A DNA stretch of 50,000 nucleotides from Chiloscyllium plagiosum (Eukaryota): positions 1-50,000 of the forward strand of contig NW_025214742.1 in the NCBI RefSeq assembly GCF_004010195.1, written 5' to 3'. This document shows positions 1-35,112 of this stretch, one piece after another. The position numbers and the translations under genes were made by a program. Each line of letters starts with the position of its first letter. The first letter of the stretch is position 1. The notes under the pieces are model-generated. The model made no database searches, was not told where the DNA came from, and saw only the letters and a program-made list of their open reading frames with translations.

Positions 1-249
1 TTCTAAAAGAGGAGAGACTTAACAAACAATCCAGGTCTTTTTTAATATATAATTTCAGTTGCATCACACTGTAAACTTTTGCTATAAATTCTGTGTCTTA
101 TGATCTTATACTCTACAACCACCTGACAAAGTGGTTGTAGAGTGTTGCGAAAGCTAACGCTTCAAAATAAACCTGTTGGACTATAACCTGTTGTTGTGTG
201 ATTTTTAACTTTGTACACCCGAGTCCAACACCGGCATCTCCAAATCATG
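1..249 (+). mobile_element. Terminal repeat of a probable Penelope-like element (family A here), with a disrupted hammerhead motif
   Basis: Shares AATAAACCTGTTGGACTATAACCTG..TGTGATTTTTAACTTTGTAC..CCAACACCGGCATCTCCAAATCA with 4690-4882 and partly with 7565-7652; remnant core CACCTGA...CGAAAGCTA. Confidence 0.65.
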
Positions 250-814
250 CCTGCTATTAAAGAAACTAAAAGAAGTTGATCCATAATTTTAATCTTTGAA
301 AAAGTTTTCTGAAGCATGTTGAAGTTAGTAAGTGTCAGTAAAAGAACTTGTAGGGAAAAATGATCCTTTTGGTCATAAGATTTAGGTTAGAAAAGGACAT
401 AGGCTAATCTAAAATTAAAAATGGAGAATGTAGAGAAGCCTGAAGAAATGCATTTTGATAGGGAGGACTAGAAACAGTAATATAGCATAAAGGATATGGA
501 TCTGAAAGGGGTACAACAGCAGATGGACCTACAGGATATATGTGCACAAATTACTGAAGATGGCAGAGTAGGTTGAGAAAGTGGAAAACATGTGACATAG
601 GAAAAATTTTGTTTTAATTTTCAAAGACACTTTTTTAGATTTTCTCAAAGCCCACCTTTTGGGTTGAAGGACTTTAGGGGCTTTTTCTATATTTTCTTTT
701 TTATTAGTCATGAAGTCACATTAACTTCTGTGTTATTGGTGATTTCATTTTGAATTTCGGATTTTGTTCTATAGATAATACAAGTGTCATAGACTGTAAA
801 GACATATTGATTGA

Positions 815-985
815 TGGATATTGGCTGGGACACTGGAAGAAGTTCCATACTCTACCTTGAAAACTGCTCTGAGATCATGTAAGTCCAATTGAGAAATTAG
901 GTGAGGTTTCTTTTCCAATATCACATCTGAAAACATTTCTTGGAATGCTGAACTCCCTCAGTATTGCCAGCCTAGATATTATATA
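815..985 (-). mobile_element. Degenerate Deu-domain SINE fragment
   Basis: Reverse complement resembles the central part of the SINE at 48730-49110. Confidence 0.4.
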
Positions 986-1189
986 TTCCAAATGACGGAC
1001 AGCCAGAAAGAGCCACCTAAACGGCCGCTTCAGATGGTGATCCTGGCGGATACTGGATTTGAGACACAGTCAGGAGGTTGAATTGATTGTTGTCTGCAGA
1101 CATCAGCCAAATGGACAAAGGTGGAAGATGATGTGGGAGGCGATTTTTCAGAGGAAACCAAACTACACCAATCAGATCAATACTGAGGT

Positions 1190-1782
1190 GATGAGCAGTT
1201 CAGAGGCTGGGAATCCTGCAGCAAGTAATTCACTTTCAATTCCCCAACGCCTGTCCACCATCGACAAGGCACAAGTCAGGATTGTGATGAATTACTTTTC
1301 ACATGCCTGCATATGAGTGCAGCTCCACCAATGTTTGAAGCTTAACAACATTCAGGACAAAGCAGCCCAAATGGTTGGCACCACATTCACAAATGTCCAC
1401 TCCCTTCACCTGAAACACAACAGCAGCAGTGTGTACTATCTACAAGATGCACTGCAAAAATTCACTAAAACTCGTCAGATGGTAAATTCCAAACCCATGA
1501 CCTCTACCAACTGGAAGGACAAGTGTTGCAGATGCAAGGGGAACACCACCCCCTGCAAGTTTCCCTTTGAGTCCTCAAAACCATCCTGACTTGGAACAAC
1601 TGTTCCTTCATTGCTGTTAGGGTCAAAGTTCTGGAGTTCCCTCTCTACTGGAGTGTTCCCACACCATATGGGACGACAGCAATTCAAAACATGGCTCATC
1701 ACCACCTTCTCAAGGGGAGGTCAGGAACAGGCAATATATGTTGGGCCCAGTCAGCAGTAGTCATGTCACACGAGTGAATAAA
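1190..1782 (+). mobile_element. CR1-clade LINE 3' fragment (second family)
   Basis: Decayed ORF2 C-terminus (LSTIDKAQVRIVMNY; LNNIQDKAA) and 3' UTR (CACCACCTTCTCAAGGG...GAATAAA); homologous to 26095-27182 and 39770-39940. Confidence 0.75.
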
Positions 1783-2205
1783 GACAGTCTCTAGAATGAG
1801 ATCAGAACACATTGTCTTCTTATTCAGAAAAGAAAAATAATACCAAAGAAACTGAATATGTCCCCATGGGAATACTGTTCCTAATCCAAACCATGATGAA
1901 ACCAAATGTAAGCACAGATAACATGTTGACAGCATTAAAATAGGGCTATTGTTAAAAAACAATGATGGTAACTTCTTCCTGGACATAATGACAGTGGCTC
2001 AAGGTCAGGCTTGAGGTGTTTGCCAGCATATCTCCTGGAAGCTGGGCCTTATGCAGGCTCTGTCGTAACTCTATCTTTCCCACATATGACGATGATCTTT
2101 ATCTCATTTGCTACCCCATCATTGAGATTTTCAAGATTTTTTGGGTTTTTTCGAGCCTCCCATCCTTGTATTTAATTTGAGCACTGATGCAGAATCTGAA
2201 GATAA

Positions 2206-2720: not shown

Positions 2721-3169
2721 CATAAAGATTTGCAGAAAGGTGACAGGTGAATGGTTCTAGCTGAATTTTCCTTGCAGGGTGGCATGGGCCAATAGGCTTG
2801 CTATGTTATAACCATTCTGTGATACTGTATTGTTTCCAATCACATATCCTAAATTTCGCTGTCTCCCTGGCAAATAATGAAGCAAAGTAATTACTTAATA
2901 TTTTTGTCTTACTGCAATCTTATGTAATTTTTCTTCTATCCATTCCTGGCCCACATGTTAGTTTAGTGGCGTCTTTTGTTTGAACTTTATCAGACTGGGG
3001 GTTTGAGAAAGGTGTTTCTTGTCATTTATACAAATTTTAACTTGGAAGAAAACAGTCTGTTTATATCAGTAATTTGAGACGTATCCAAACAATTCAGATA
3101 TATTTACAGCATACCCGAGGGGCCATAATTTGCACCTATTGATATTGGAAGGGCACCACTGACAACTGA

Positions 3170-3260
3170 CACAAAAACAGAAATTGCTGGGGAAACTCAG
3201 ACAGCACCTATGGGAAGAAAGCAGATTTAACATTTCAATTCCGGTGACTCTTCATCAGAT
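3170..3260 (-). mobile_element. Terminal fragment of repeat family D (probably Penelope-derived) with decayed hammerhead
   Basis: Homologous to 33985-34070; minus strand reads CTGATGAAGAGTCACCGGAATTGAAATGTTAA. Confidence 0.6.
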
Positions 3261-3289
3261 GTATGACACTCATTTAGTCATGGACAGGG

Positions 3290-3915
3290 ACACCACTCCC
3301 CTCACCTCTGTCCGAGGGATCTTTCCACATCCGTCAGAAATTTACTTGTACTTCTACCAATATCATCTACTGCATCCGTTGCACCTGGTGCGGTTCCTCT
3401 ATATCGGGGAGAGAGGACACCTTCTTGCTGATTGTTTCAGAGAACATCTCTGGGACCCACCAACCCCACCGGCCACGACTGAACACTTCAACTCCCCCTC
3501 CCACTCCGTCAAGGACATGCAGGTCCTGGGCCTCCTCCGCCACCGAACTGTTACCACCCGACGCCTGGTGGAGGAATGCCTCATATTTCCCCTTGGGACC
3601 CTGCAACCACATGGGATAAATGTGGATTTCAACAGCTTCCTCATTTCCTCTCCCCCCCCACATTATGTCAGTCCCAAGCCTCCAACTTGGCACCACCCTC
3701 TGGAACTGTCCATCACTCCCCTCTCTGACTTATCACCTTCTTCCCCATCTTCATCCACCTATTGCTTTCCCAGCTACCTTACCTCCAACCCACCCTGCCC
3801 ACCCCCATTTATCTCTCAGCCTGGACATACAAGCCTCATTCCTGAAATGTTGATTCTCCTGCTCCTCGGATGCTGCCTAACTTGCTGTGCATTTCCAGCA
3901 CTACATTCTCAACTT
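3290..3915 (+). mobile_element. Penelope-like element fragment (GIY-YIG endonuclease plus 3' repeat), family B
   Basis: Frameshifted FTCTSTNIIYCIRC..YIGE..LADCFREHL..EHFNSPSHS..LGTLQPHGINVDF; 3' repeat CTCCTGCTCCTCGGATGCTGCC. Confidence 0.85.
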
Positions 3916-4689
3916 TAACCTTTACCTTCCTTAAAGACCTTAATTTCCCCTTCTACGTGGTTGAAGGTGCCCTCCAACGCATCTCAACCATGTCTCGCAC
4001 CTCTGCCCTGAAACCCCACCCGTCCAACCGCAACATGGACAGAACCCCCGGTCCTCACTTTCCACCCCACCAACCTCCGCAACAAACCACATCATCTGCC
4101 AACATTTCCACCACCTACAAATGGACCCCCCCACCAGGGATATATTTCCCTCCCCATCCCTATCCATTTTCCAGAAAGACCGTTCCCTCCTGTTCAGGTC
4201 CACGCCCCCTAACAACCCACTCTCCCTTCCTGGCATCTTCCCCTGCCACCACAGGAATTGCAAAACCTGCGCCCACACCTCCCCCCTCACCTCCATCCAA
4301 GGCCCCAAAGAAGCCTTCCACATCCATCAAAGTTTCACCTCCATAAATGTCATTTATTGTATCTGTTGCTCCTGATGCGGTCTCCGTTACATTGGGGAGA
4401 CTGGATGCCTTCTTGCAGAGTGCTTTAGGGAACATCTCTGGGACACCCGCTCCAATCAACCCCACCACCCCGTGGCCGAACATTTCAATTCCCCCTCCCA
4501 CTCTGCCAAGGACATGCAAGACCTGGGCCTCTTCCACTGCCACTCCCTCACCACTTGACACCTGGAGGAAAAATGCAGTATGTTCCGCCTCGGGACCCTT
4601 CAATCCCAAGGCATCAATATGGGCTTCACCAGTTTCCTCATTTCCCCTCCGCCCACCTTACCCCAGTTCCAATGTCCCAGCTCAGCACC

Positions 4690-4882
4690 TGATTTGGAGA
4701 TGCCGATGTTGGACTGGGGTGGTACAAAGTTAAAAATCACACAACACCAGGTTATAGTCAACCTGGTTTAATTGGAAGCACTAGCTTTCGGAGCACTGCT
4801 CCTTCATCGGTTGTGGAGGACACAATTGAAAGACACAGAATAAACCTATTGGACTATAACCTGGTGTTATGTGATTTTAAAC
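4690..4882 (-). mobile_element. Short family A insertion with internal inverted repeat and ~16-bp target duplication
   Basis: Flanked by TGTCCCAGCTCAGCACC (4673-4689) and TGTCCAGCTCAGCACC (4883-4898); body is the reverse complement of ~90-249, followed by a + strand copy of the same terminus (4838-4882). Confidence 0.85.
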
Positions 4883-5069
4883 TGTCCAGCTCAGCACCAT
4901 CCCCATGACATGACCCACCTGTCAATCTTCTTTCACACCTATTTGCTCCACATTCCTCTCTGACCTATTACCTCCATCCCCACCCCCATTCACCTATTGG
5001 ACTCTTGGCCTACCTTCTCCCCAGCCCCACCCTCCCATTTCTCTCTCCACCCTGGAAGCTCCCAGCTTC

Positions 5070-5105
5070 ATTCCTGATGAAGGGCTTTTGCCCGAAATAT
5101 TGATT
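5070..5105 (+). ncRNA. Minimal type I hammerhead ribozyme motif (family B), stem III decayed
   Basis: CTGATGA-A-GGGC-TTTT-GCCC-GAAA-TATTGA. Confidence 0.7.
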
Positions 5106-5624
5106 TTTCTGCTCCTCGGATGATGCCTGACCTGCTGTTTTTTTCCAGTACCACTCTGATCTTGATTTTAGCCTCGGACATTCAAGATTTGGCCACGTAC
5201 AGAATTCACTTTATTACCCAGATCTAACATTTCAACTACAAGCCGCTCAAAGGAAATAGTCAAGGGAAACACCAAGTAAAATTCGCAGGATAATACTTTC
5301 TGAGTGTTTTTTTTCTCGCATTTTCTGCTTTTACGCGCAATTCATAATTTTTCCAATTATGTTATTTTCTTTCTTACTTCGATAGTTGGGCACATGACTA
5401 TTGGCATATTCCAGTAACAAAGTTATAACCCTACATTGGTAGGAGCGTTCTCAACCGAGGGACTGAAAAAAATCCTGTCCCATTCTGGAACAATATTCAA
5501 AGATCTTTTTGATGCCCTTTAATTGTCCTCGATGTGCACTAAATCAAAATCGAACGAATACATAAAATTCATATAACACATATGACCACCGAGAAATATT
5601 AACTGTTCGTCATTTCAACTTGTA

Positions 5625-5696
5625 GGGGATGTAGCTCAGTGGTAGAGCGCATGCTTTGCATGTATGAGGCCCCGGGTTCAATCCCCGGCATCTCCA
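5625..5696 (+). tRNA. tRNA-Ala-TGC: tRNA-Ala (anticodon TGC)
   Basis: 72-nt canonical cloverleaf, A box TAGCTCAGTGG, B box GGTTCAATCC, G3:U70 alanine identity pair, TTTT terminator immediately after (5697-5700). Confidence 0.98.
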
Positions 5697-5729
5697 TTTT
5701 ATTTGCAGTGGGTTGTGTTGAAACATTTT

Positions 5730-6130: not shown

Positions 6131-6202
6131 GGGGATGTAGCTCAGTGGTAGAGCGCATGCTTCGCATGTATGAGGTCCCGGGTTCAATCCCCGGCATCTC
6201 CA
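6131..6202 (+). tRNA. tRNA-Ala-CGC: tRNA-Ala (anticodon CGC)
   Basis: 72-nt cloverleaf differing from the upstream gene at 2 positions; G3:U70; TTTT at 6207-6210. Confidence 0.98.
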
Positions 6203-7189
6203 CAGATTTTGCTTACCATTCCGCAGCACTTGAATCAATATTGTGTTGAAGAATGATATTTCACGACTGATGTTACGTGAAAGTTATTACTTCATTCTGA
6301 CCAATACACACACCTTTCTCTTTGGGATATCTTTAAGTTCGGAATGGAAATAGTGATTGGTTAACACGTATAAACATTGAAAGGAAACAGTTCACATCTT
6401 TGATGAGTCCTTTGCAAGGTGGAGTTGAGTTTCTTTTAGTTACTAATTACTTAAAACAATAACGAATATATTGATATTTTGGATATACGGGATATTAGTT
6501 GATTTAATAGAGTATCTGTTGGACAGAACTAACACAAGAGGGTTAAAGGCTCTCTGCAAGTGTACTTATGTCATAATCCCCTTATTGTTTACCAATATCA
6601 CTGTTATTGTTTTTTCTTTGTTGGTTCGTTTATTGTCTCCTTTACATTTGAAATGGCTCACCGGCCTCTTCAAACAACTCACCCTCTATCTATCGCCACT
6701 CTAGCTGCTGTTCCGTCACAACACGAAAGTAAAAATGCTGCAGATGCTGGAAATTGAAAAAGAAGCAAAAGGTGCGAGATATAATCGAATCATAGAAATA
6801 TTACGACGCAGAATTACAGAATTTTTACAGCGCAGCGGGAGGCCATTAAGCCTGCACTTGCTGTCCAAATGACCATTCACTTCTACCATTCCCCTGCCTG
6901 CTCATCGGAATCCTGCACGTTATTCTTTTCAAATTAGACGACTCTCTTTTAAATGTATTCATTTAACTTACTTTTCACACTGTCAGGCAGTGAATTTCAG
7001 ATACTAACGGCTAGCTACCTGAAAAAGCTTCTTTCTCATATCATTTTTGTTTTCTTTTAGTTTTGTTTTGTGACTTTTGCTGATTATTTTAAATTTACGT
7101 CACTTGTCCTCAATCCTTTCACAAGAGAAAACAGTTTCTTTTTGTTTAGTCTGTCCAAAATCTTCATGATTTTGGAAAGTTCTATCTGA

Positions 7190-8170
7190 TCCCTTCCTAC
7201 GTCTTCTAATCTAAGGAAAACAGTAACTTCTCTAATCTTCACAACCCAAGTTCCTCATTCTTGGAACTATTTTTGTAAATGTCTTCTGTAGTCGTAACAA
7301 CGCTTCCACATCCTTCCTAAATTGTGGTACCCACAACTGGACGCAATACTACAGCTGAAGTCAAACTAGCGTCATATACAAATTCATCATAGCTTCCTTC
7401 TCTTGTCCTCTGTGTCCTTGATAAGAATGCCTGGTACTCTGCTTGCTTTATTAACTATGTTCTCAACATTTCCTTCCACTGCTGATGACATATATAAATA
7501 TACACCCAGGTCCCTCTGCTCCATTTTAAAGTTGTATTCTTTAATATGTATTGATTTTCCATGATCCTCTGATGAAGGAGCAGCAAACTGAAAACTTGTG
7601 GTTTCAGATAAACCTGTTGGACTATTAACTGGTGTCACGTGACTTCTGACTTAATCAATTAAGATATCAATGGATTGGTTGGATGGGCAGAGAAGAGGCA
7701 AATGAAGAAGTGTGATGTATTTTGGGGACACTAACTAAGCTGATCAAAAGAATATGCAATACATGGGAGAATACTAAAAAAAGAGTAGATGAAGTGAGGG
7801 ACTCTGGAATTATTGTCCATAAATCCTAACAGGAAAGCTTGATTAGTAAAAAGGAAGGAATGTGGAATCTTTTCCTCAGGATAGAGTTTAAGAGCAGGGT
7901 GGATGTTGGAAGTGTATAAATTATTAGTTAGACTATAACTTGAGTTCTGTGTGCAGTTCATTACAGAAAGGATGTAATTTGACAAGAAAGGATATAGGTG
8001 AGATATGTGTGAATGTTGCCAGGACTGAAAAACTTTAGCTATAAAGGAACATTAGGTAGGCCGTGTTTGTTCTCCTTGCAACAGAAGAAGTTGAGGGAAG
8101 ATTTAATTGAGATGCCCAAAATTGTTAGGGGCCTGAATAATGACTTATGGAGAAGACCGGTTTGTCTTGG
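7190..8170. mobile_element. Old CR1 fragments (minus ~7190-7560, plus ~7660-8170) around a family A terminal fragment (7565-7652)
   Basis: Decayed EQRDLGVY and MLPGLKNFSY..LREDLIE motifs; CTGATGAAGGAGCAGC...ATAAACCTGTTGGACTAT at 7569-7625. Confidence 0.7.
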
Positions 8171-10072: not shown

Positions 10073-10074
10073 TG

Positions 10075-10950: not shown

Positions 10951-12431
10951 CCTCCCCCTCATTAAAAAAGTGAACTGTCAATATACAAAGACGGCTTCAT
11001 TTTAAACCCCTTAGTCTTATGCCTTTAGTACACTACCTCACATATAAATTACATTGACTGTAAGCATGCAAACATCCACTACTACATTCTATTTCAGTCC
11101 ATTTACTCCTACCGCTGAACGCTTCCATCTTTCTTCATCCAAATCTCGACAACACATTGGCAATCACATTTTCTTGTCCGGCCATATGTGTAATTTTCAA
11201 TGGCTGCAATAATAAGCTCCATCTAAACAGTCTGGAATTGTTCTCCCTAAATTGCTCTAAAAACTTTAATGGGTTATGATCAGTATTACAATTGTCTCAG
11301 ACACAATACGGGCAATATAGATGTTAAAATTTTGAAACACCAACACCAAACTCACGGTCTCCTTCTCAATTCTGGAATATTTCTCTTGATGAATATTCAA
11401 TTTCCTGGTGAAGTATCCAATAGGCCATTCTATCTTCTTGTGGTCTTCTTGTAAGAGTATAGCACTGACATCCACATTTTCATACCCATAGCCACCTTGA
11501 ATGGCTTTGCATAATTAGGTGTGGCTCATACTGGGACAGCAGTTAACACAGATTTTAATCTGTCAAATGCTTTCTGACATTTCTCCGTTCATTGAAGTTT
11601 TCTGCACTTCGTCATGCATAATTAGATTAGTACTTCCCAGCTTATTCCCAAATATCTCCCATGCAATAGTAATAACTCCTTCAGGTCATTTTAATTTTCC
11701 TCTAGAAGGTAACTCAATAATTTATCCCATTTTTTGAGACCTACATCACTGTTCAATTTAATTTGAGGAATCTTGAATTCAGAATCCTCTTAACCTGATT
11801 CTTACTGTTATAATCAGTAACACATTCTCCTTTTGCTTTCCTTCCCTATCAAAATACCATTTCAGCATATTCACATGACACACTCTATGAGATTTCTTTA
11901 TATCTGGAGTCCTTATCAAATAGTTCATCTCGTTCAATCTCCTTTCGATTTGATAAGGTCCATTAAACCTTGCTTTTAAAGATTCACCTATCACTGGATG
12001 TAACGCTAATACGTCATATTCATTACCAAAACTATGAGATCTTGACTTTTTGCCTGCTTCCTGTTTCATCATATGCTGTGATATTTTTAAACACTGTCTA
12101 GCCAACACCCCCATTCTATTGAACCATTCCCTAAAATTTGATACATAGTCCAAGCATGGGATCTCTGAATTCTGATTCACTAATTTCTCCTTAATTATTT
12201 CAGTGGTCCTCTCACTCATGCCCAAAAATGAATTCAAATGGACTGAATTTGATAAATTCATTTTGTGCATTCCTAATGGCAAAAAGAACAAACAGAATTC
12301 CTTTATCTCAATTTTCTGGATAGTCTTGACTATATGATCTTAATATAGTTTTTAACGTTCGATGCCAGCTTTCTAATGCTCTTTGCGATTCTGGGTGGTA
12401 CTGTTACGATGCGGAGGACAAACTCCCTTGT

Positions 12432-14205
12432 TAGAGTCATAGAGTCAGAGAGATATACAGCATGGAAACAGACCCTTCGGTCCAATCCATCCATGCCGAC
12501 CAGATATCCCAACCCAATCTAGTCCCACCTGCCAGCACCTGGCTCATATCCCTCCAAACCCTTCCTATCATATACTCATCCAAATGCCTCTTAAATGTTG
12601 CAATCGTACCAGCCTCCACCACTTCCTCTGGCAGCTCATTCCATACCCGTACCATGCTCTGTGTGTAAAAGCTGCCCCTTAGGTCTCTTTTATATCTTTC
12701 CCCTCTCACCCTAAACCTATGCCCTCCAGTTCTGGACTCCCCAACCCTGGGAAAAGACTTTGCCTATTTACCCTATCCATGCCCCTCAAAATTTGTAAAC
12801 CTCTATAAGGTCACCCATCAGCCTCCGACACTCCAGGGAAAACAGTCCCAATCTATCCAGCCTCTCCCTATAGCTCAAATTCTCAACCCTGGCAACATCC
12901 TTGTAAGTATTTTCTGAACCCTTTCAAGTTTCACAACATCTTTCCGATAGGAAGGAGACCAGAATTGCACGCAATATTCCAAAAATGGCCTAACCAATGT
13001 CCTGTACATGACCTCCCAACTCCTGTACTCAATACTCTGACCAATAAAAGAAAGCATACCAAACGCCTTCTTCACTATCCTATCTACCTGCGACTCCACA
13101 TTCAAGGAGCTATGCACCTGCACTCCAAGGTCTCTTTGTTCAGCAACACTCCCTAGGACCTTACCATTAAGTGTATAAGTCCTGCTAAGATTTGCTTTCC
13201 CAAAATGCAGCACCTCGCATTTATCTGAATTAAACTCCATCTGTCTCTTCTCAGCCCATTGGCCCATCTGATCAAGATCCTGTTGTGATCTGAGGTAACC
13301 CTCTTCGCTGTCCACTACACCTCCAATTTTGGAGTCATCTGCAAACTTACTAACTGTACCTCTTATGCCCGCATCCAAATCATTTATGTAAATGACAAAA
13401 AGTAGAGGACCCAGCACCTATCCTTGTGGCACTCCAGTGGTTACAGGCCTCCAGTCTGAAAAACAACCCTCCACCACCACCCTCTGTCTTCTATCTTTGA
13501 GCCAGTTCTGTATCCAAATGGCTAGTTCTCCCTGTATTTCATGAGATCTAACCTTGCTAACCAGTCTCCCATGGGGAACCTTGTCAAACGCCTTACTGAA
13601 GTCCATATAGATCACATCTACCGGTCTGCCCTCATCAATCTTTTTTGTTACTTCTTCAATCAAGTTTGTGAGACATGATTTCCCACACACAAAGCCATGT
13701 TGACCATCCCTAATCAGTCCTTGCCTTTCAAAATACATGTACATCCTGTCCTTCAGGATTCCCTCCAACGACTTGCCCACCATCGAGGTCAGGTTCACTG
13801 GTCTATAGTTTCCTGGCTTGTCCTTACTACCCTTTTTAAACAGTGGCACCACATTTGCCAACCTCCAGTCTTCCGGCACCTCACCTGTGACTATCGATGA
13901 TACAAATATGAGCCATGTTTCTGTAGTTGCTATGATATCCCAGTCCCATGTTCCTAACCATGCCCTGAGTTCATCTGCCTTCCCTGTTAGGCCCCTTGCC
14001 TTGAAATAAATGCAGTTTAATTTATTAGTCCTACCTTGTCCCTGTCTGCCCTAACTGTTTGACTCGCTTCTGTTCTCAACTGTACCAGTCTCAGATTGAT
14101 CTCTTTCCTCACTATCTCTCTGGGTCCCACCACCTTCCCTTAAATCCTCCTGAGCATCTCTAGCAAATTTCCCTGCCAGTATATTAGTGCCCTTTCAATT
14201 TAGGT
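12432..14205 (-). mobile_element. HER1/CR1 LINE with an internal deletion, nested in the Gypsy element
   Basis: RT motifs [23 protein letters not shown] and a full 3' tail; at 13909/13910 the RT-proximal region is fused to the endonuclease N-terminus (CIYFKARGLTGKADELRAWLGTWDWDIIATTETWL). Confidence 0.93.
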
Positions 14206-15095: not shown

Positions 15096-17670
15096 TTGAT
15101 TTTGATAAGAGATTGCATTACAGCTATACTGAGGGAGGATATTCCCAGAAATACATCCAGGGAAGTTATTTGGGTGGAACTGAGAAATAAGAAAGGGATA
15201 ATCTCCTTATTGGGATTGTGTTATAGACCCCCTAATAGTCAGAGGGAAATTGGGAAGCAAATTTGTAAGGAGATCTCAGTTATGTGTAAGAATAATAGAG
15301 TGGTTATGGTAGGGGATTTTAACTTTCCAAACATAGACTGGGACTGCCATAGTGCTAAGGGAGAGGAGAGGAATTTGTTAAGTGTGTACAGGAAATTTTT
15401 TTGATTCAACATGTACCTATTAGAGAAGTGCAAAACTTGGCCTACTCTTGGGAAATAAGGCAGGGCAGGTGACTGAGGTGTCAGTGGGGGAGCACTTTGG
15501 GGCCATAATTCTATTAGTTTTAAAATAGTGATGGAAAAGGTTAGACCAGATCTAAAAGTTGAAGTTCTAAATTGGAGGAAGGCTAATTTTGATGGTATTC
15601 GGCAAGAACTTTCAAAAGCTGATTGGGGGCAGATGTTCAAAGGTAAAGGGACGACTGGAAAATGGGAAGCCTCAGAATTGAGATAATGAGGAGTCCAGAG
15701 ACAGTATATTGCAGTCAGGGTGAAAGGAAAGGCTGGTATGTACAGAGAATGCTACATGACTAAAGAAATTGAGGGTTTGGTTAAGAAAAAGAAGGAAGCA
15801 TATGTCAGGTATAGACAGGATAGATCGAATGAATCCTTAGAGTATAAAGGCAGTAAGAGTATGTTTAAGAGGGAAATCAGAAGGGCAAAAAGGGGACATG
15901 AGATAGCTTTGGCAAATAGGGTTAAGGCGAATCCAAAGGATTTTTGCAAAAAGTTTAAGGACAAAAGGGTAACTAGGGAGAGAATAGGGCCCCTCAAAGA
16001 TCAGGAAGGCGGCCTTTGTGTGGAGCCGCAGGAGAAGAGGGAGATACTAAACGAGTATTTTGCATCAGTGTTTACTGTGGAGAAGGACATGGAAGATATA
16101 GAATGTAGGGAAATAGATGGTGACATTTTGAAAAATGTCCATATTACAGAGAAGGAAGTGCTGGATGTCTTGAAACACATAAAAGTGGATAAATCCCCAG
16201 GACCTGATCAGGTATTAAATCCCCACATCCTGATCAGGTATATCCTAGAACTCTGTGGGAAGCTAGGGAAGTGATTGCTGGGCCCCTTGCTGAGATATTT
16301 GTATAATTGATAGTCACAGGTTAGTGCTGGAAGACTGGAGGTTGGCTAACGTGGTGTCCCTATTGAAGAAAGGTTGGGGACTATAGACCAGCAATCCTAA
16401 TATTGGTGGTAGGTACATTTTTGGAGGGAATCCTGAGGGACAGGATGTACATGTATTTGGAAAGGCAAGGACTGATTAGGGACAGTCAACATGGCTTTGT
16501 ACATGGGAAATCATGTCTCACAAACTTGATTGAGTTTTTTGAAGAAGTAACAAAGAAGATTGATGAGGGCAGAGGCAGTAGATGTGATCTATATGGACTT
16601 CAGTAAGGCGTTTGACAAGGTTCCCCATGGGAGACTGGTTAGCAAGGTTAGATCTCATGGAATACAGGGAGAACTAGCCATTTGGATACAGAACTGCTCG
16701 AGGGTAGTGGTGGAGGGTTGTTTTTCAGACTGGAGGCCTGTGACCAGTGGAGTGCCACAAGGATCAGTGCTGGGTCCACTACATTTCATCATTTATATAA
16801 ATGATTTGGATGTGAGCATAAGAGTTTGTAAGTTTGCAGAGGTGTAGTGGACAGTGAAGAAGGTTACCTCCGATTACAACAGGAACTTGATCAAATGGGC
16901 CAATAGGCTGAGGGGTGGCAGATGGAGTTTAATTTAGATAAATGTGAGGTGCTGCATTTTGGGAAAGCAAATCTTAGCAGAACTTACACACTTAATGGTA
17001 AGGTCCTAGGGAATGTTTCTGAACAAAGAGACCTTGGACTGCAGGTGCATAGCTCCTTGAAAGTGGAGTTGCAGGTAGATACAATAGTGAAGGTGGTGTT
17101 TGGTATGCTTTCCTTTATTGGTTAGAGTATTGAGTACAGGAATTGGGAGATCATGTTGCGGCTGTACAGGACATAGGTTAGGCCACTTTTGGAATATTGT
17201 GTGTAATTCTGGTCTCCTTCCTATGGAAGGATGTACTGAAACATGAAAGGGTTCAGAAAAGATTTACAAAGATGTTGCCAGGGTTGAAGGATTTGAGCTA
17301 TAGGGAGAGGTTGAATAGGCTAGAGCTATTTTTCCTGGAGCATCGGAGGCTGCGGGGTGACCTTATAGAGGTTTATAAAATCATGAGGGGCATGGATAGG
17401 ATAAATAGACAAAGTCTCTTCCCTGGGGTGGGGGAGTCCAGAACTAGAGGGCATAGGTTTGGGGTGAGAGGAGAAAGATATACAAAAGACCTAAGGGCAA
17501 CTTTTTCATGCAGAGGGTAGTGTGTTTATGGAATGAGCTGCCAGAGGAAGTGGTGGAAGCTAGTAAAATTGCAACATTTAAAAGGCATCTGGATTGATAT
17601 ATGAATAGGAAGGGTTTGGAGGCCTATGGGCCAGGGGCTGGCAGTTTGGACTAGATTGGGTTGGGATATC
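15096..17670 (+). mobile_element. HER1/CR1 LINE, most of ORF2 (endonuclease plus RT), pseudogenised
   Basis: [55 protein letters not shown]; many stops and frameshifts; tail cut off at 17670. Confidence 0.95.
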
Positions 17671-17830
17671 TTAGCGAGTTCTGAGAAGATTTGTAGCTCA
17701 GGTTGAGGCTCTGGATGTAAGTTTGCTCGCTGAGCTGCAAGGTTCATTTCCAAACGTTTCGTCACCCTACTAGGTAACATCTTCAGTGGGCTTCCGGGCG
17801 AAGCACTGCTGGTAAATCCTTGTTTCTATT
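17671..17830 (-). mobile_element. Terminal fragment of a probable Penelope-like element (family C)
   Basis: CpG-retaining 160-bp segment between the LINE and the DNA-transposon end; carries a complete hammerhead motif. Confidence 0.65.
17750..17789 (-). ncRNA. Minimal type I hammerhead ribozyme, all core nucleotides present
   Basis: Minus strand CCA-CTGAAGA-T-GTTACC-TAGTAG-GGTGAC-GAAA-CG-TT-TGG: stem I CCA/TGG, 6-bp stem II, palindromic ACGT stem III, GUU cleavage triplet. Confidence 0.8.
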
Positions 17831-18085
17831 TACAGAGGAACCTCAATTATCTGAATGAGATGGGCAGGCACTATTTCGTTCAGATAATCAATTATTCAGT
17901 TAATCAATTAAATGCCTTTCCTCTGAGGTTTGGAGTTTTTAAAGTATGCTCCCTGTTCAGGAGACTGCAGCTGCACACAACACGTGAGCCCCCGCCCCCA
18001 ATTCCGCCCAATACTGCCCCCAGCCCCATCCAACCCCGCCCCTGTCCAACTCCACCCTCCGCCCCCCAACCCCACTCCCCGCACC
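17831..18085 (+). mobile_element. Left end of a Tigger/pogo-like non-autonomous DNA transposon
   Basis: TA followed by CAGAGGAACCTCAATTATCTGAA, with inverted subterminal echoes (TTCAGATAATCAA, TTCAGTTAATCAA); right end not found. Confidence 0.55.
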
Positions 18086-18565
18086 TATCTGATCAAGATC
18101 TTGTTGTAATCTGAGGTAACCTTCTTCGCTGTCCACTACACCTTTTGGTGTCATCTGCAAATTTATTAACCATACCCCCTATGTTCACATCTAAATCATT
18201 TATATAAATGACAAACAGCAGGGGACCCAGCACCGATTCTTGTGACACACTGCAGATCACAGGTCTGCAGCCTGAAAAGCAACCCTCACCATCACCTTCT
18301 GTCTTCTACTTTGAGAAGTTCTACATCCAAATGACTAGTTCTCCCTGTATTCCATGTGATCTAACCATGCTAACCAGTCTCCCATGAGGAAGTGGTGGGT
18401 GCACATACAGCTTACAGTATTTAAAAGACATTTGGACAGTCATATGAACAGGAAAGGTTGAGAGGGATATGGGCCAAATGCAGGCAAATGCAACTTGTTG
18501 AATCTGGGAAAACTGGTCGGCATAGACCAATTGAACTGAAGGGCTTGTTTCTTGTGCTGTGTGAC
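18086..18565. mobile_element. CR1 RT fragment (minus, 18086-18387) abutting a CR1 3' end (plus, 18388-18565)
   Basis: Minus [35 protein letters not shown]; plus-strand tail GAACTGAAGGGCTTGTTTCTTGTGCTGT. Confidence 0.85.
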
Positions 18566-19416
18566 TTTGTGTTGTACAATAATGTTGGCTGTACGTACCT
18601 CCATCTTTTTGTACTTGTACCCAGGAGATCAGCAGACTACCAATGTTGCCGTCCCTCCCCATTGATAACTATCCGAACTAAAAAAAATCCAAATTTGCGT
18701 TAGGGAACATTGAATGTTTGAAACAGAATAAACTTAGAAAATGTACTGTGTCCGTCGGTAAGATAGTCTTTTCTCTGCGATTTGCTGCGAATTTCCAGTA
18801 TTCTCTGGTTTTAGTTTTGAAGTACAGTAATTTCACTTCCTCAAAAGATACGTAAGTGGAAAAAGTACAGTAGTTCTTGTTTAATTGTTCTGGAATTGTG
18901 GCTAAATAACCACGAAATCTTACATTTTGATAGATTTTCCTAAACACATTGTGTATTTTATACTGATATGAGTGAAACAGTATTTCCACTTTTATTGATC
19001 GGCTTTGATGTTAAACACGTTTCACTTCGGTGCATAGAGATAGGTAAAACTTCGTATAACTATTTATTTCACCTTAGGCACAATATGCACACACGGATTT
19101 AAAATGCACAGTACAGACCTAAACAGTTATAAAATAACAGTGTAAACTAAATGAAATTAAAAAGTCTAGTTGCCGTTTAATACACATTGCCTCACATGGG
19201 GCCCTGCTGTTCTATGGTGCAAGCAGCACCATTGCGCAATTTCAGGGACGTCATTTAAAAGGGGACTTTTTGCCGAGAATGTTTTCCAGTTCCTCAGGAA
19301 GGTTCTGAGACCAACTGCGGAGGCGGGCCAGACATTGTGATGGATTGTATTTCGTGTGAATGTTTGTGAAAAAGCTCTTTGAATAAATATTGATGTCAGC
19401 TTCAAATTCGAACAAT

Positions 19417-19442
19417 TGTGTGTGTATATATATATATATATA
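19417..19442. repeat. (TG)n(TA)n microsatellite
   Basis: TGTGTGTGTATATATATATATATATA. Confidence 0.9.
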
Positions 19443-19919
19443 CTTTAACCCTGAATGAAGTGCCTTTACTCTGTTGATTTTAGGGTTTTTTTCGATATAG
19501 AGTTTTAAAAGTAGAAATATTTTCTAATCGTATTTCGATTAAATACGTGACCAATTCTAAACTTATTTTCAAAAATGCTTATATCCAGTGATTTCAGTAT
19601 AAATACGGTGCAAGTATCAAACTTCCTGGAGGAGGGATTTAAGCCATATTATGGAGGCTGATCGTGTTCATGGTCAATTCGTCTTTTAAGTGTCAATATA
19701 CCTTCTTTATCCTTTAAGTCTATAATAACCTATATTCTTTTTTAAATACATGTAAATATTTAGATGTATACAGGGAGGATATGCTCCTATGACAATATTT
19801 TTTGAAATAAACTGCACTCATTTACACGGCACTGCTGATCCTGGGATTATGAAGTCTCTTTACATTGGAGATCAATGAAAAGGTCAGACATTCCTATTAG
19901 TGCAATGTATGACACTCAG

Positions 19920-20380
19920 TGTGCGGGTCTGCACCGCTCCTTTACCGACAATCAAATTATATCTGGCCCATCATGTTCGGCAGACCGGACCGAAGATGAC
20001 GATAGGGCGGGGTGTGACGGCATGATGATTGACAGCACGAGAGCGAATCGTATCGGTGGGGGCGGGACGTGTAGTTTGATTGACAGGGTTGCGCGGCCAG
20101 TTGAGTGGTCCGGGTGGTTGTGGGCGGGGCTCGAGCCGTGTCTCGCGCTGCTCTGGCCAGCGTGCGTCACAAGAGCTGGAAGAGTCAGTGTGGTTGCGCG
20201 TGATCGAAGGGCGATAGGTAGTGGTGATGGAGATCGAGGCGCCACTGGCACAGCAGCAGGTACAGATAACAGTAGTAACTACCTCTCTCTGTCTCTCAGC
20301 GACAGTTTCGGTGCAGAGAGCAGGGTAAGGTTTCGGTGCAATTAGATCGCAGGCGACCCGGGGTAGGGGGGTAGGGAAAA
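19920..20380 (+). promoter_or_regulatory. CpG-island promoter of an unidentified gene
   Basis: Dense CpG in a CpG-depleted window; GC boxes at 20005-20012, 20059-20068 and 20121-20130; TGATTGACAG at 20026-20035 and 20077-20086; splice donor at 20325. Confidence 0.85.
20185..20324 (+). other. Probable first exon (start approximate)
   Basis: Lies just downstream of the GC boxes, Inr-like TCAGT near 20185, ends at donor AGG|GTAAGG; ATG at 20227 in good Kozak context, open to the donor. Confidence 0.6.
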
Positions 20381-23352
20381 CATTTAGCAAAGGGAGGCAA
20401 ACTAGTTCAACTTTCAAGATAGTTCTATCTGAGCGTGTGACACGAAAACGTTTTCAATGTGCTGAAGAATTATTTACGTATAAATGTGCAGGTTCTTATG
20501 GTTAAAGTAAATTGGGGTGACTACTTTAAGATCGGGTCATTTGTCCATCAGCTCCCTTTCCCTTTTACCCCGCAGTCTTAATGCTCATCTTTGGATTGGA
20601 TTTCCTCATCCGTCTACTCCCACGACATATTTTCGAAGCTTCTGATGATATGAAGCGCAAACGTTGAAACCTGGGCGTTCGCCAAAAGCGTTATTTCAGA
20701 TTCTGCGTCAAACTTATTGCACAGTGCCAAGTCATTCTATTGTACTGAATAGTACTTGAAGGAAGGGTCTGAAAAAAAGGTTGGCCACAGGGAGGTTTGT
20801 CTGTTATCTTGCTGCTCCCCATAACGATAACTTTCGTGCGTGAGCCAGTGCAATGTTTCCCAATCTTTTTGATTTTTCTCAAAAGCTGTTGAGGTCGGTT
20901 GTCGTCTGACCCCTTGAGTTTTCCAGCTGATACTGGGGTGTGATCTTGTCCCCACCCACCAGCCTTTACAGTAACTGAATGGCAGGTGAAAGACAAGCTG
21001 GTCCTATAGGGTTTGGCTCTGTTTATCGGACGTTCAGCAAACATGGGGATTAGGGGAAAAAAATCTATAGTTTCTTCTCTAAACTTTAAACTCTTGCTTT
21101 TCCTCACTAACCTGCCAAATCGATTGTTCCTCCTTTATTTGTCCTGATATTTCAATTCGGTGTATTGTCACGTGCCTTCCATTCGTGTTTGGCTGGATTC
21201 CTGACCTTTAGTACGAGTTACAGCGATTGTAGAACAGCATTTTTCTTCTGGTAGTAAATGATTAATAGGTGGTTTGACTGCTTTGCGTGATGTTGTGAAA
21301 TATTTACTGTACGGTGAAGGTCATTAGCTGCAGAAAGAATCTCAATTGTTGCAGCACATGTCGTTTCTTCTCCCTCCGTTTGTTCCGGCTGGATCGACAG
21401 ATTTCGGATCAAATTCTGGTCAGATTAATAACAATCAATTTCCTGACTGTGTTGTATATAGTTAAAGGATGAAAATGGACAAAAACAGATATGTGAACAA
21501 TAAAAAAATTAAAGAACAGTGAGCTCTGATAAGGAAATATTTTAATTTCTATTTCTCTGAAATCTGCAACCATCCTCATTTTATCATTTGAAAGGTTCAC
21601 AGCTGTGTCAAGCTGTTGCGTCTGGGTGCCTTTGCTAAGTTTTTACTTAAAATCTAATTGCCTTTTGCATAGCTATTGTTTCATACTTTAATTGTTATTT
21701 TAAATGTTTAGTTTCCTCCTCTAAGGACGTGTTTTCTTTAAATCCTGTATTCAAATTGGGGCGCATTAAGAACATTACAAAAAATCTCAGTTTACTAGAG
21801 TCATCTTAAAAAAAAACTGTGCCTAGTTGTGTCAAAAGTTCCTTTGTCCACTTGTGCATCACTAACAGTTGACATTTTTATATAGCATCTTTTGGGGTAA
21901 AATATCTTTGGGTGATTCATAGGAGCATTATCAAACAACACTAAACCATGTGCGATATTCAGGCATATGACTGCCTGGTCAAAAATGTAGATTTCAAGTC
22001 TTTCTTTGAGGAAGCAGAGATTTGTGGAATAAGAGTTTACTTTGTTGCTTCACATGTGCAAAAGACCAGCTTGCATGTTTTACGTAGTGCACTAGTTTTA
22101 GCCATGATGGCTGCCAGCTAAATAATTGTAGTCTGTGACTGGAGCCTGGCAGTTAAGGCAATGAAAAGGCAAAAGCAATAGTCTGCTTGGAAATGGAAAG
22201 AGAGTTGGAGGTAAATCTGGATTTGTTGACTTGAGTACCTATTTGTATTTGTTGCCAGTGGATTGATAGTGTCTATTAGAGTTCCTTAACTTTATACACG
22301 AGCTTTCAAAATTGTAGTAACTTTTTTCTTTTTGGCTGAGAAACCACAATCTTAACAACACATAGTCACTCATTAGTTCATCTTATCATTGTAAGAATCT
22401 GCATCTGAGTGAATCTCTGCAAATCCGTTCATAATTCCAATCATAAGCCAATCACATTTTTGAACTAGCAGCAGGATAGTTGATGCAGCTGCCTTTAAAG
22501 CTGATGCAAATGAATGGTTGGATCAACACTAAGACCATTCCCATATCAATGAATTCTGGAGTTAGCCAAGGATTTATCCCCTCAACTCTCTTTGAGGTAG
22601 ATGCTGCATTTGCTGACATATGTTGTAAACATATTCCAAATGTATCATGACACCTGGCTTTACCTTCCCACCAACTCTCTTCACTTAACCACTATCTTTA
22701 CATATTGTCTGATTTATTTATCTGACATGCTCACAAATTAAAATTTGGAAAGAACAAAGCTATTGCATTTGCACCTAGCTACCAACTTCATTCCATTCTG
22801 ACAGCTAGCTCTGTCTGAATCAGAATTTGCCAGTATTCCACTTGACCCTGACATGGATAATAAATCTCTCATACTTGCTATCACACAGACTACCTGCTTA
22901 TAATGTCCCACTGCTGCTGAAATCCTAATCCTTTGTTATTTTCAGAATTGATTATTCGAGTACCTGCCACCTGATGAGCACAAGAAGTGGTGACTAAATG
23001 ATTGGTCAAAAAGCTGGTTTTAAGGAACCTGAGAAAGGACCGGTTTGAAGAGGGAACTGGAGCAATAGCTTCCACACAGTTAAAGGGATGTTTCCCATTT
23101 TACACTTCCACTAGTGGGATAATGCACAAGAAGCCTAGGTGAGAACATTGTAATGTTTTTAGGGAGCTGAAAGATTTCATAATACTGTGAAAGGGATAAG
23201 TCAAAGGGCTTTTAAGCACAAGGATAACTATTTGAAATTTGAGCTGTGCAGAACCATGATCCAATATAGGGAAATGAGCCTAGAGATAATTGAGCAGACA
23301 TTGGGTTGAAATGAACTGTAGAGTTTTGGTTCAACTGACATTTGTGGGAAAT

Positions 23353-23500
23353 GGCAGCATCTGAGGACCAGGAGAATTGACATTTCTCATCAGGATGAAG
23401 GGCTTCTGTCCAAAATGCAATTCTCCTGCCCCTCGCATGCTGCCTAACCTGCACCGTGCTCTCTACTCTGATCTCCAGTATCTGCAGTCCTCACTTTTTC
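23353..23500. mobile_element. Fold-back fragment of the Penelope family B terminal repeat
   Basis: Arms 23353-23385 and 23412-23444 are imperfect reverse complements around ATGAAGGGCTTCTGTCCAAAA. Confidence 0.75.
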
Positions 23501-31250: not shown

Positions 31251-32329
31251 CATGATTGGAAGCTTCCAGGAATACATGCATAAAGTTTCTGCATGTACTA
31301 ATCTTGGCATATTGAGGCTAAACGTGCTATAAATCTCTTGTATTATTGCAAGCTATTGAATACAAGTGAAGGTTATTCTTGCGACATGAGCTGTTCCAGT
31401 TCATTGAAAGAAACATACAGATCTTATGTGGTGTAGGGAAATCAGTGGAGATAATGGTGTTTGCTTTGCTTGCTTTCAGGTGAGTTTAATTATTAGCCAA
31501 ACTCTTAAATTGATAACCTAATACTTGCACTTGTTTTGGGCTTTGCTCTCCTGGCCTTTTTCACAATGAAGCTGTTAGTTGTTTTTTGCAAGCAATTTTT
31601 TTTAAAAATTAGGATTAGAAATGTGGTTAGTTTAATGTATGATGGAGAACTCCAGATGGCAGGTTGCAAACAGCTGTTTGTATTGACTTGTCTCATCCCA
31701 TCCCTTAAGCAGATGCTTACTCTATCCTCCATGTTTAGAGCGCATTCTCAAAGCTTGTTTGATTCGAGGCATTTGTTTGATTGTGCAGGTGGTTATGTTC
31801 AATTCCAGTGACTGTGTGGAATAGATGGCAGCAGCTACATGTCCCACCTGATCTATTCCTTTCCAACAGGAAGGGCATTTAGGGGTATTCAGCAGTTGGC
31901 TAATCTGGTGTCGCCTGCTTCATGCTCCATCTGAAATTGCATGATGCCTGCTCAAAATGTTTTACTGTCTGGTTTGTTTTACTCGTGTATATAACTCCAC
32001 TTCTAAATGCCAACTGATGTTTTAACTTAAATAGATACAGAAAATATTAGACCAGTTAACTGTTTGGCAAAGAAATGCTAGGATGGTTCTTATCTGTGCT
32101 TTACCATGTATCTAATCTCAGCAAATAGAGCAGAACGCATTGTACCGGAAAGGAACGTTTTTTTAATTCAGTGATTTTGTGTACACAAAACCTGACTGGG
32201 TTTGTTTGTAGGTTGCCTTAGAGATGCATCTAAGCAGACAAGGATTGCAGTTATACAAGCTTAAACCTATAGTTGAACCTGAATCTATTTGATTTTAGTG
32301 AAATGGGGAGCTGTCGCTGTGTAATGTAA

Positions 32330-33120
32330 ACCAACAACTTTAAATTAGACAAAAGTTCTGAACTTCACAAGGACAGTTAGTCATAAACAGAGACGCATGA
32401 AATATTGGTCATAGGCTTTAACAACATTTCAAGAGGAAAGGAAAATGGGGTTTGGGAGATTAGACTGCTGAACACGGCCACTAATGGTGGACAGAGGAGA
32501 ATGAAGGGTGTGGAAGAAGGGAGAAGTGTATACGAGTGTTGCTGTAGCATTGAAGGAGGTCACAAAAGTAGGGAGAGAATGAGGACCTAGTAGTATTTGA
32601 AAGCTTAATAGCATAGCCAGAGCAGGAGCTATTGTAAGTCAGTATAGGGGTGATTGATAAACAGGACTTGGTGATTAGGAAATTGGCAGCAGAATTTTGG
32701 ATACCCAAATGTTTATTGTGCAGGTCTAGCCAGGAGAGTGTTAGGGAGTTGAATCCGTGTACAACAAGTTCCCATGAAGGTTTCAATAGCAGCTCAGTTG
32801 AGGCCAGGATTAAATGCCGGTAATGTTTCATAAGTGGAAGTAGCCTATTGTGGTATAAACCATCTGAGGTTGGAAGCTTCACTCAGCATGTAGTAAAATG
32901 TTACAGTCTTAAAACAGTAGCCAGGGAGAGGGATGGAGTCATTGGTAGCTAGTGAATAGAGCAGAGGCTGAAAGTAATGATTCCTAATCTCTTAATATTT
33001 AATCAGAAGAAATTTTGCCTCATAGGATTGGATGTCAGAAATATGACAAATCAGACAATGGTATGTTTGAGAGAGATTATGCTAATATAGAAGGCCAGAT
33101 ATCGTCATACACATGAACCC
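32330..33120 (-). mobile_element. L2-clade LINE 3' remnant
   Basis: Minus-strand LVVHGF..IQNSAANFLITKSCLSITPIL resembles the L2 ORF2 C-terminus (QNSAAR..ITPVL). Confidence 0.6.
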
Positions 33121-33947
33121 ATTAGGTATGAAATTCAAGGTGACCAAAAGCAACATTTGTGCCTCCTACAATATATGGATGTTAATGGCAGTACTTTTGA
33201 CTGTATTAGGTAAATGTTTTGTTTTTAATAAAGTTTAAAAACTTGCTAATTTCTGTTGTTATGCTCACTATTCTCAGTGCTTCTGTGCACCTATAAACAA
33301 ATCTGTTTTTTTAGCTTTAGTCTGTACATTGATAGCAACGTATTTTTCATAATCAGAGCCATGGGCATTGATGTAACTATTGGAGCTCACCTGCAATCAG
33401 CAAGATGTCACTGTTTTTCAGGATGTTATTTCAGAAATTCAGTTATAGCTGGGGTCAGGGAAATTATGATGCGGTGAGGCATGACTTAGGATGTGTGGCT
33501 TGGAAAAGTAGACTCCAAGGCAAGAGTGTACTGCGCTGTATTCTTCTATGTTCTATGTTCTAAATGTTGCTCATGGAGTAGATATTGAGTCTGAGTCTGT
33601 TCTTTCATCATGAGCATACAACAAAAGTGTTGGGACAAAAGTTCCATTAGTACAATCCAACAATCAGCATGAGGGAATATACTGGAAATCACTGTACTGC
33701 AAGGGATTTTTTTTTTCAGCTTCTCCATCCTCCCTCATGCTGTGGATGTTGGCTGCCTGTTAGGGATATTTTCACAGGTGATTATCCGAATTGCGTTTGT
33801 GATATCATCTCTATACCACAGGTAAACACAGATTTTGTATCCCACCTTGTCTCTGATCACTTGAAGTGCGGTGTTTTATTGGAAGTTCCTATGGAAACCT
33901 AATAGCTTAATGTTAGTCTAGACACTTGTGGCAAAATAATATAATAA

Positions 33948-35112
33948 AAAGCCACAGAACTGTGGATGCTGGAAATCAGACACCAAAACAGAAATTGCTA
34001 GGAAAACTAAGCAGGTTTGGAGAAAGCAAAGTTAATGTTTCGGATCCAGTGATCTTTCTTCCTAACTGATTTGTAGTTAGGAAAGGGTTGGGGCAGAGTA
34101 AACAATAGATAGAATTGAAGTCCAGAGAGAGCAAGAACAGCTAGCAGACAAAGGACCAGGTAAACCTCAGCCTGGGGAATTTGTGACCATTTGTGGCAGA
34201 CAATGAATGGCTGTCCTAGTCAGCTATACAACATGGAAACAGACCCTTTGGTCCACCCCGTCCATGCTGACCAATTATCCTAAACTTATCTAGTCCCATT
34301 TGCCAGCATTTGGCCCATATTTCTCCTTATTCATGGACCCATCCAAATGCCTTTTAAATGTTGTAATTGTACGTATCATCACCTCCACCCCCACCTCTGG
34401 CAGATTGTTCCATATGTGCATAATTGTTTGTGTGAAAAAGTTATCCCTCAGTTACTTTAAATCTTTTCCCTCTCTAGTTTTGGACTCCCTTACCTGAGGG
34501 GGGAGAGAAAGACCGTTGCTATTTACCTTATCTGTGCCCCTCAATATTTACGAACTTTAAGGTCAGCCCTCACTCCAGGGAAAAATGCCTCCACCAATTC
34601 AGCCTCTTTAAAGGTCAAACCGTCCAGTCTCACCAAAATCCTTGTAAATCTTTTCTGAACCCTTTCAAGTTTCACAACACCTTTCCTACATCAGAGGCCA
34701 GAAATGAACGCAGTATTCTAAAAGTGGCCTAACCAATGTCCTGTACAGTTGCAACATGACATCCCAACTGCTGTAACTCCTAGCACTTCACTTGTGCTAG
34801 GAGCCCATGTGATGATGAGACCTAGTGTGTAGGGTTGAGGTAAGGAGATGGGAGAAGGTGCCTAAATAATTGAACTCTCTCTAATGAGCCCTGAAGACTG
34901 CAGGGCCCTTATCTGTCCAACTGCTGGTCTCTGGCTCTATCTTAATTTATAATTTCTTCTTCCCTCCCCTTGCCCCACCTCATCATCTGCATACACACCA
35001 AACTTTTCCTAGCTGCAGTCAGTTCTGAAGAAAGGTCAGTGGACCCAAACATTAACCCTGTTTTCTCTCCATAGATGCTGACAGACCTGAGTTCTTCCAG
35101 CAATGTTTTTAT
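33948..35112. mobile_element. Family D element with inverted terminal copies, split by a HER1 fragment (minus, ~34230-34775)
   Basis: 33985-34090 and 35000-35112 are reverse complements; each has a decayed hammerhead core. Confidence 0.7.

Follow-up and report, generated by a model that had tools for sequence, protein, structure and literature searches.

What are the short repeats with a hammerhead ribozyme core that recur in the first 50,000 nucleotides of contig NW_025214742.1 of the shark Chiloscyllium plagiosum (RefSeq assembly GCF_004010195.1; this stretch is hereafter the window), and from what kind of RNA were they copied? An earlier note, made from the letters alone, had described repeats of hammerhead architecture in four families (A to D), with a palindromic helix III and a presumably huge number of copies genome-wide. 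That reading is supported here with three corrections, and the observation as a whole is partly confirmed. Ten of the 11 cited sites are genuine repeat copies according to family profiles built from genome copies (E 2e-62 to 8e-10), and a supposed trace at 25472 had no match at E < 0.01 in the same scan of the window. The common architecture stood; the four distinct families reduced to three lineages. The repeats are the pseudo-long terminal repeat (pseudo-LTR) or tail ends of Penelope-like retrotransposons (PLEs), and we place at about 70% the probability of the fuller reading, namely that they are the ends of three PLE lineages with minimal hammerheads predicted to cut only as dimers, and that the copies were likely made from RNA left uncut at that site.

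The link to PLEs comes from loci found by genome searches with reverse transcriptase (RT) or endonuclease pieces, the flanks of which were then read. The family B motif lies approximately 1.0-1.1 kb downstream of the RT, on the same strand, in 13 of 19 RT loci. The family A motif is linked in 4/5 short and 5/6 long RT loci, and that of family C in 3/5 short loci (one being the query's own) and 6/6 long ones (one of which repeats a short locus). RT followed by GIY-YIG in one open reading frame (ORF), with the motif in the flanking pseudo-LTRs, was found in copies broken by stops and frameshifts. For example, locus L219 is a full-length but broken family A copy comprising motif, ATG, RT, linker, GIY-YIG region and motif, with its start codon about 120 bases past the motif core, where the long tail ends (L219:1419). 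Family D has yielded only GIY-YIG fragments, upstream of three copies, and similar coding fragments precede both B-type ends in the window. Most PLE domains were missed by Pfam: across nine proteins, RVT_1 exceeded the cut-off in three and GIY-YIG reached E 0.002 in one. Among named proteins, the nearest matches come from sharks (up to 90% identical), followed by turtles and alligator, which agrees with the earlier note's mention of sharks.

According to the portions of Craig et al. 2021 available to us (bioRxiv 10.1101/2021.04.23.441226), a CX2-5CxxC linker marks Neptune and Nematis, while Penelope and Poseidon are without it, and endonuclease-positive PLEs carry a C-terminal GIY-YIG domain. 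The shark elements conform to this scheme, with a C-X4-C-X2-C linker in family A (CHGGRCKTC) and family B (CHRRNCKTC), and, without the linker, a GIY-YIG domain at the C-terminus in family C. On this sequence basis A and B are assigned to a Neptune type, D is related to B, and C is of Poseidon type, a clade placement that is read from the linker motif rather than from a tree with named references and that would also accommodate Nematis, the homologues listed including no named reference. The linker of D was not read in frame, and its place is taken from tail homology to B. The proteins of A and B are only 29-40% identical. Because the tails of B and D are shared (72-75% identical; 75% over 69 bases), three lineages are counted rather than four; the A and C tails match nothing else. 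Two further observations concern these families. A second Poseidon-type subfamily (sample blocks C6, C9 and C2), with another stem II and upstream sequence, outnumbers the window's family C in the genome sample described below, and at locus L327 (G000:C1:8039409) an inverted family C copy directly abuts a family A stub that begins with G, a possible cross-family chimera.

The expectation of a very large genome-wide number was borne out. In the 3.56-Gb genome, exact patterns, each paired with a reversed-pattern control, were found 19,711 times for family A, 36,754 for B, 2,520 for C and 7,392 for the D type, and 1,951 times for a D-related subfamily with a U3-A8 core (approximately 68,300 altogether), with no match in any reversed control. 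A sample of 1.165 Mb, made up of 22 arbitrarily placed blocks from 22 large contigs, contained 377 end fragments (B 186, D 108, A 60, C 19 and a further D-like group 4; reversed control 0), with 5-46 per block and 261 of the 377 spanning the core. A family-free descriptor identified 91 complete motifs in the same sample, versus 0-3 in six controls; 59 of these are still palindromic, 44 of them with at least two helix I pairs. Scaled from the sample, and thus extrapolated from 0.03% of the genome, these counts correspond to about 1.15 million end fragments, mostly remnants, and to roughly 130,000-280,000 complete motifs. Genome-wide, the motif is far above chance, but within the window the strict descriptor gave three matches, including a chance-like one at 2196, against a mean of 0.5 and a maximum of 3 in 30 shuffles. 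As the strict count in the window does not exceed that of shuffles, significance rests on the profiles and the genome counts.

The core CUGANGA...GAAA with its 3-8 pair is kept in the family masters and in two window copies and not in the other window copies. The single extra unpaired base that the earlier note placed before helix II, between positions 9 and 10.1, occurs in 89 of the 91 complete motifs, and a G10.1-C11.1 closing pair is present in the frequent motif types, apart from CpG-type decay. Helix III has no loop, and 59 of the 91 motifs keep the palindrome A15.1-N-N-U16.1. The sequence of helix III is ACGT in 51 motifs, ATGT in 14, ACAT in 12, AGCT in 5 and other in 9, so that 26 motifs beyond the 59 palindromic ones are CpG-decayed ACGT; AGCT belongs to A, and ACGT or its CpG-decay products to B, C and D, which upholds the suggestion that helix III is palindromic and in B and D derives from ACGT. 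Core position 7 varies freely, with all four bases found. Helix I is short, at 3-4 pairs, and shows compensatory changes in C and D. The 3-8 core pair of 41 D-lineage copies is formed by C-G 32 times, by U-A 7 times and by other bases twice, and one helix I pair in these copies takes the form U-A (21 copies) or C-G (10 copies). A helix I pair also varies in family C, with C-G found in 21 of 32 copies and U-A in 9. In the U3-A8 subfamily, the flanks of which are known from a few sample copies only, U3-A8 is present in 95 of the first 100 copies listed and G8 in none. These compensatory changes, including the U3-A8 core, point to selection on the fold, although they represent a few subfamily-level events rather than many independent ones. 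The minimal type I hammerhead of each lineage, with a four-base palindrome for helix III, is predicted to cut only as a dimer. No Rfam hammerhead family was matched in the window by covariance models up to E 5, as expected for motifs without helix III.

The boundaries of the copies are informative about their RNA template. In every family the 3' ends fall at two points, near +80-95 and +115-130 relative to the core. In the sample, which is unbiased with respect to the ends, 5' ends accumulate at -6 to -2 in B (47/186) and D (32/108), with p about 1e-19 and 1e-21, respectively, against the upstream rate, and more loosely in A (22/60 at -12 to +3); overall, the accumulation lies 4-8 bases ahead of the core. 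Upstream of this peak the sequence consists of unrelated flanks or of an inverted partner. Loose contig ends at 5070 in the assembled data of four runs repeat the -4 junction of the window's family B copy and are silent on expression. The predicted cut site, where the earlier note had pointed to possible ends, is not enriched for 5' ends in the DNA (B 2, with 5.4 expected; A 1, with 3.1; D 7, with 4.1, p 0.12); ends cluster instead just before the motif. In B and D the peak falls on the boundary of helix I, and in A it lies five bases outside the 3-pair helix I. Every 5' peak is an A after a pyrimidine, and the initiator consensus is likewise an A preceded by a pyrimidine. A head-to-head partner adjoins 144 of the 377 sample copies, versus a tail-to-tail partner in 4, and 60 of 65 head-to-head pairs combine one long and one short tail. 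Copies with 5' truncation, an inverted copy and a 30-40-base tail on one end were all found, of 16 solo B stubs, 8 lie between target duplications (a mean of 0.3 in controls), and the stubs carry the same subfamily sequences as the ends joined to coding regions.

An additional base at the start point offers a further clue to that template. Copies that begin at the 5' peak tend to carry a G in place of the C or T of the element. In family A, G outnumbers A by 85 to 15 among the first 100 of 3,172 matches, versus 48 to 52 one base upstream (first 100 of 1,250), so that the excess is confined to one position (Fisher p 4e-8, counted by hand). In family B there are 5,925 G to 3,303 A before the start, compared with a background ratio of 0.68. 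The flanks of 30 A matches show junctions rather than a subfamily, and those of 30 B matches comprise 29 junctions and one copy that apparently continues into 3' untranslated region (UTR) sequence. Copying of a cap leaves a G, and the 5' ends with excess G in A and B likely reflect a capped, uncut RNA template.

These results would be explained by a capped PLE messenger RNA (mRNA) that starts from the initiator-like site at the front of helix I. Target DNA would be nicked by the enzyme of the element, which would begin reverse transcription at either of two internal sites, some 85-95 and 115-130 bases past the core. A start in the 3' repeat would give ordinary 5'-truncated copies; one in the 5' repeat would reach the cap after 95-135 bases, run off there and yield stubs carrying an additional G; and priming on both DNA strands would generate the inverted pairs. 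The ribozyme itself may take its fold when the four-base palindromes of two repeats pair, and it would probably trim or regulate precursor RNA rather than define insertion ends. Taken jointly, we consider it somewhat better than an even bet that a capped Neptune-type mRNA starts at the hammerhead front, that tens of thousands of 95-135-base stubs are cap-to-primer complementary DNAs (cDNAs) of the uncut leader, and that the ribozyme core is under selection without making the ends.

Several results weigh against this account. No intact ORF was found among the loci examined, where most long open frames proved to be unreadable stretches; helix I carries a U-U mismatch in the most frequent B form; energy folding gave stem II in monomers and returned a hammerhead dimer for none of three real copies; family C showed no 5' peak near the core in 19 copies; and no target duplication was found at eight solo A stubs. 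The extra G is also uneven. In the unbiased sample it is not in excess in D (4 G and 5 A of 30), weak in B (12 G and 5 A of 37) and not significant in A (3 G and 0 A of 9), in sets that include subfamily copies whose upstream sequence was not modelled. Moreover, the adjoining DNA already has a G at that place in 6 of the 8 B stubs that show a target duplication, and at 9 of 13 (A) and 5 of 12 (B) junctions with an inverted partner; because the flank so often supplies it, the G is often not provably untemplated. This is consistent with a cDNA whose terminal C anneals to a G, the C being either copied from the cap or simply added. The latter possibility would suit an explanation without any capped start, in which the 5' peak is a hotspot for reverse transcription stops or template switches at the edge of the folded motif and the enzyme adds an untemplated C; the match of G to flank or partner, its absence in D and the coincidence of the peak with the helix I boundary in B and D would all be accounted for. 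However, the family A peak falls outside helix I and its G excess occupies a single position, an enzyme travelling 3' to 5' has left the structure behind by the time it reaches the peak, and the initiator consensus is matched at every peak. An initiator-type internal promoter is also described in the pseudo-LTR of Drosophila Penelope, in the part of PMC2377424 available, and we regard the hotspot explanation as unlikely, though the most serious of the alternatives.

The fixed ends and target duplications of the stubs might instead mark the short units as separate non-autonomous elements, similar to retrozymes or short interspersed elements, that copy themselves, possibly via self-cleaved circular RNAs. 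Retrozymes derived from PLE ends have been reported, including in one cartilaginous fish (available text of bioRxiv 10.64898/2026.07.22.740005), and old family D stubs could still have been re-copied. Yet no tandem array of a repeat unit was found in the window, the stub ends are not at the cut site, opposite-strand pairs rather than direct repeats predominate, and stubs share their subfamily sequences with coding-attached ends, making an independent existence very improbable. Least credible of all is that the motif is a vestige, or a protein-binding or promoter element, that has lost cleavage in sharks. The low activity of minimal motifs in vitro (PMC4209133) and insertion in vitro without cleavage (PMC11167929), both taken from the parts of those papers at hand, would be compatible with such a loss, as would the weak helix I of B and the decay of most copies, but the U3-A8 swap keeps a tertiary pair with a known catalytic role, the palindrome survives a double change (AGCT versus ACGT), and it is the free core position, 7, that takes all four bases.

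Neither the motif nor its link to PLEs is new; what is notable is the number of copies and a testable clue to the RNA start. Minimal hammerheads with low, dimer-dependent activity were described in metazoan PLE pseudo-LTRs by Cervera and de la Pena 2014 (PMC4209133), and the text consulted already contains, feature by feature, the architecture listed in the earlier note: type I topology without a true helix III, a palindromic 15.2-16.2, one base between 9 and 10.1, and G10.1-C11.1. It likewise describes genomes with several families each, copies that are mostly single and truncated, pairs on opposite strands and, in Schistosoma, the U3-A8 core variant. Its counts of about 4,000 in coelacanth and 9,000 in Xenopus compare with at least 68,300 exact matches here, a rough ratio as the descriptors differ. 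No shark is named in the text and supplementary files searched, shark entries elsewhere in that work not being excluded, and the same portions report no 5' peak or cap signature. A literature search found no paper on shark PLE hammerheads, which does not exclude shark entries in Dfam, Repbase or supplements, and none on a cap signature in PLE insertions, with thin coverage of subscription journals.

The proposed priming has its closest parallel in Poseidon_Ac from Anolis carolinensis (Frangieh et al. 2024, PMC11167929), for which the accessible part of the paper reports in vitro internal initiation at two sites, a tail, priming on two strands, an uncut template and a protein-assisted ribozyme. 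The shark copies resemble it in their two 3' ends, which would reflect two internal starts of reverse transcription, in the tail, and in features expected of both DNA strands being primed from uncut RNA, no RNA ends having been seen at the cut site there. In contrast, the ORF of Poseidon_Ac starts inside stem II, whereas in family A the ATG is found about 120 bases beyond the core, where the long tail ends. Partial tandems, an inverted 5'-truncated copy and a 30-40-base tail on one end are also known from the PLEs of Craig et al. 2021 (bioRxiv 10.1101/2021.04.23.441226), where one long and one short tail per pair are drawn in the figures available. Animal non-LTR retrozymes, as far as the sections available describe them (Cervera and de la Pena 2020, PMC7229834; bioRxiv 10.64898/2026.07.22.740005), share type I hammerheads and very high copy numbers, with a proposed origin from PLE ends and up to 120,000 canonical motifs in the much larger axolotl genome; the 2026 preprint counts tandem retrozymes and includes one cartilaginous fish. 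Retrozymes, however, are tandem, carry canonical ribozymes and form circular RNAs (PMC7229834), whereas the shark units occur singly or inverted, have minimal motifs and are joined to PLE coding sequence, and thus lack the tandem repeats, canonical hammerheads and absence of coding sequence by which retrozymes are recognised.

Within the window, family profiles gave no match in the reversed-sequence control and recovered two inverted partners in addition to the sites listed in the earlier note. The copies are mostly dead relics, and only two, at 5074 (plus strand, family B) and 17786 (minus strand, family C), keep the complete motif; the motif patterns in the earlier note are, as it stated, reconstructions, and most of the cited copies deviate from them. 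The family B copy (4899-5178, plus; E 6e-51 and strict descriptor) consists of 3' UTR, a complete minimal hammerhead and a short tail, with its core at 5074-5080, stem II at 5082-5093, a decayed palindrome, ATAT, as helix III, and a predicted cut between 5101 and 5102. The family C end, of Poseidon type (17672-17834, minus; E 1e-48 and strict descriptor), has a long tail, a 7-pair stem II, ACGT, a 3-pair helix I and a predicted cut between 17753 and 17752; it had been listed at 17750 with no strand given, and is indeed a family C copy, with its core at 17786 on the minus strand.

The remaining copies show various stages of decay. A family A pseudo-LTR with a long tail (1-248, plus; E 2e-62) has its hammerhead destroyed, the core of this copy at 123 reading CTGACAA and a local inverted duplication replacing stem II. 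A family D stub (3164-3259, minus; profile) begins at its intact core (3258) and has a broken stem II. It is followed by a 5'-truncated, frameshifted PLE (3290-3904, plus; profile and coding reading) with a GIY-YIG fragment, 3' UTR and a B-type end from which the core and stem II were deleted at about 3842, and then by a broken family B coding region with in-frame stops (3965-4689, plus), recognised by its GIY-YIG domain and a linker reading CHHRNCKTC. Within this family B element sits a head-to-head pair (4690-4882), flanked by target duplications of about 16 bases (4673-4689 and 4883-4898), consisting of a long-tailed family A arm (4690-4841, minus; E 4e-40) and its tail-only inverted partner (4839-4882, plus; profile), in agreement with the pairing of one long and one short tail in the sample. 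In the arm, a 4-base deletion changed the core at 4810 to CCGATGA, leaving stem II, GAAA, AGCT and A17 intact. Further profile matches are an older family A-related stub (7558-7655, plus) with its core intact at 7569 and stem II broken, and a decayed family B head-to-head pair at 23353-23497 (23391-23497, plus; 23402-23353, minus), in which both the core and GAAA of the 23391 copy are mutated. Two family D ends with 3' UTR complete the set: one with a long tail and a broken core at 34064 (33947-34178, minus; E 2e-50), the other with a short tail, a core intact at 35025 and a mutated GAAA (34915-35121, plus; E 1e-50). A CTGATGA...GAAA string at 20642 matched no family, lacked stem II and was treated as chance.

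Other features of the window include two transfer RNA-Ala genes (anticodons TGC and CGC; 97% identical) at 5625-5696 and 6131-6203 on the plus strand, and a gypsy-type LTR retrotransposon fragment with an integrase C-terminal/SH3 region at 11779-12339 on the minus strand. Fragments of a family resembling long interspersed elements (LINEs), which we take to be of CR1/L2 type, lie at 2181-2720, 12434-14050, 15690-17671, 45635-47165, 49452-50000 and elsewhere, one with an RT domain (RVT_1 E 6e-16), and a second LINE-like RT fragment, presumably of L1/Tx1 type, at 36349-37173 on the plus strand (RVT_1 E 0.015). A CpG-rich stretch at 18500-21500 (observed/expected 0.63-1.04, versus <0.3 on both sides) is possibly a promoter, and its two open frames had no Pfam match.

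The role of the PLE hammerhead is still regarded as open in the text available from Craig et al. 2021 (bioRxiv 10.1101/2021.04.23.441226). With about a million end fragments, the counts in this shark suffice to resolve, to the base, the RNA start, the priming sites and the lack of ends at the cut site. If the interpretation given here is true, the genome records the start site of the element's RNA, both of its priming sites and the two-strand priming behind inverted insertions, and its more than 100,000 complete motifs would rank with the highest hammerhead densities known for a vertebrate.

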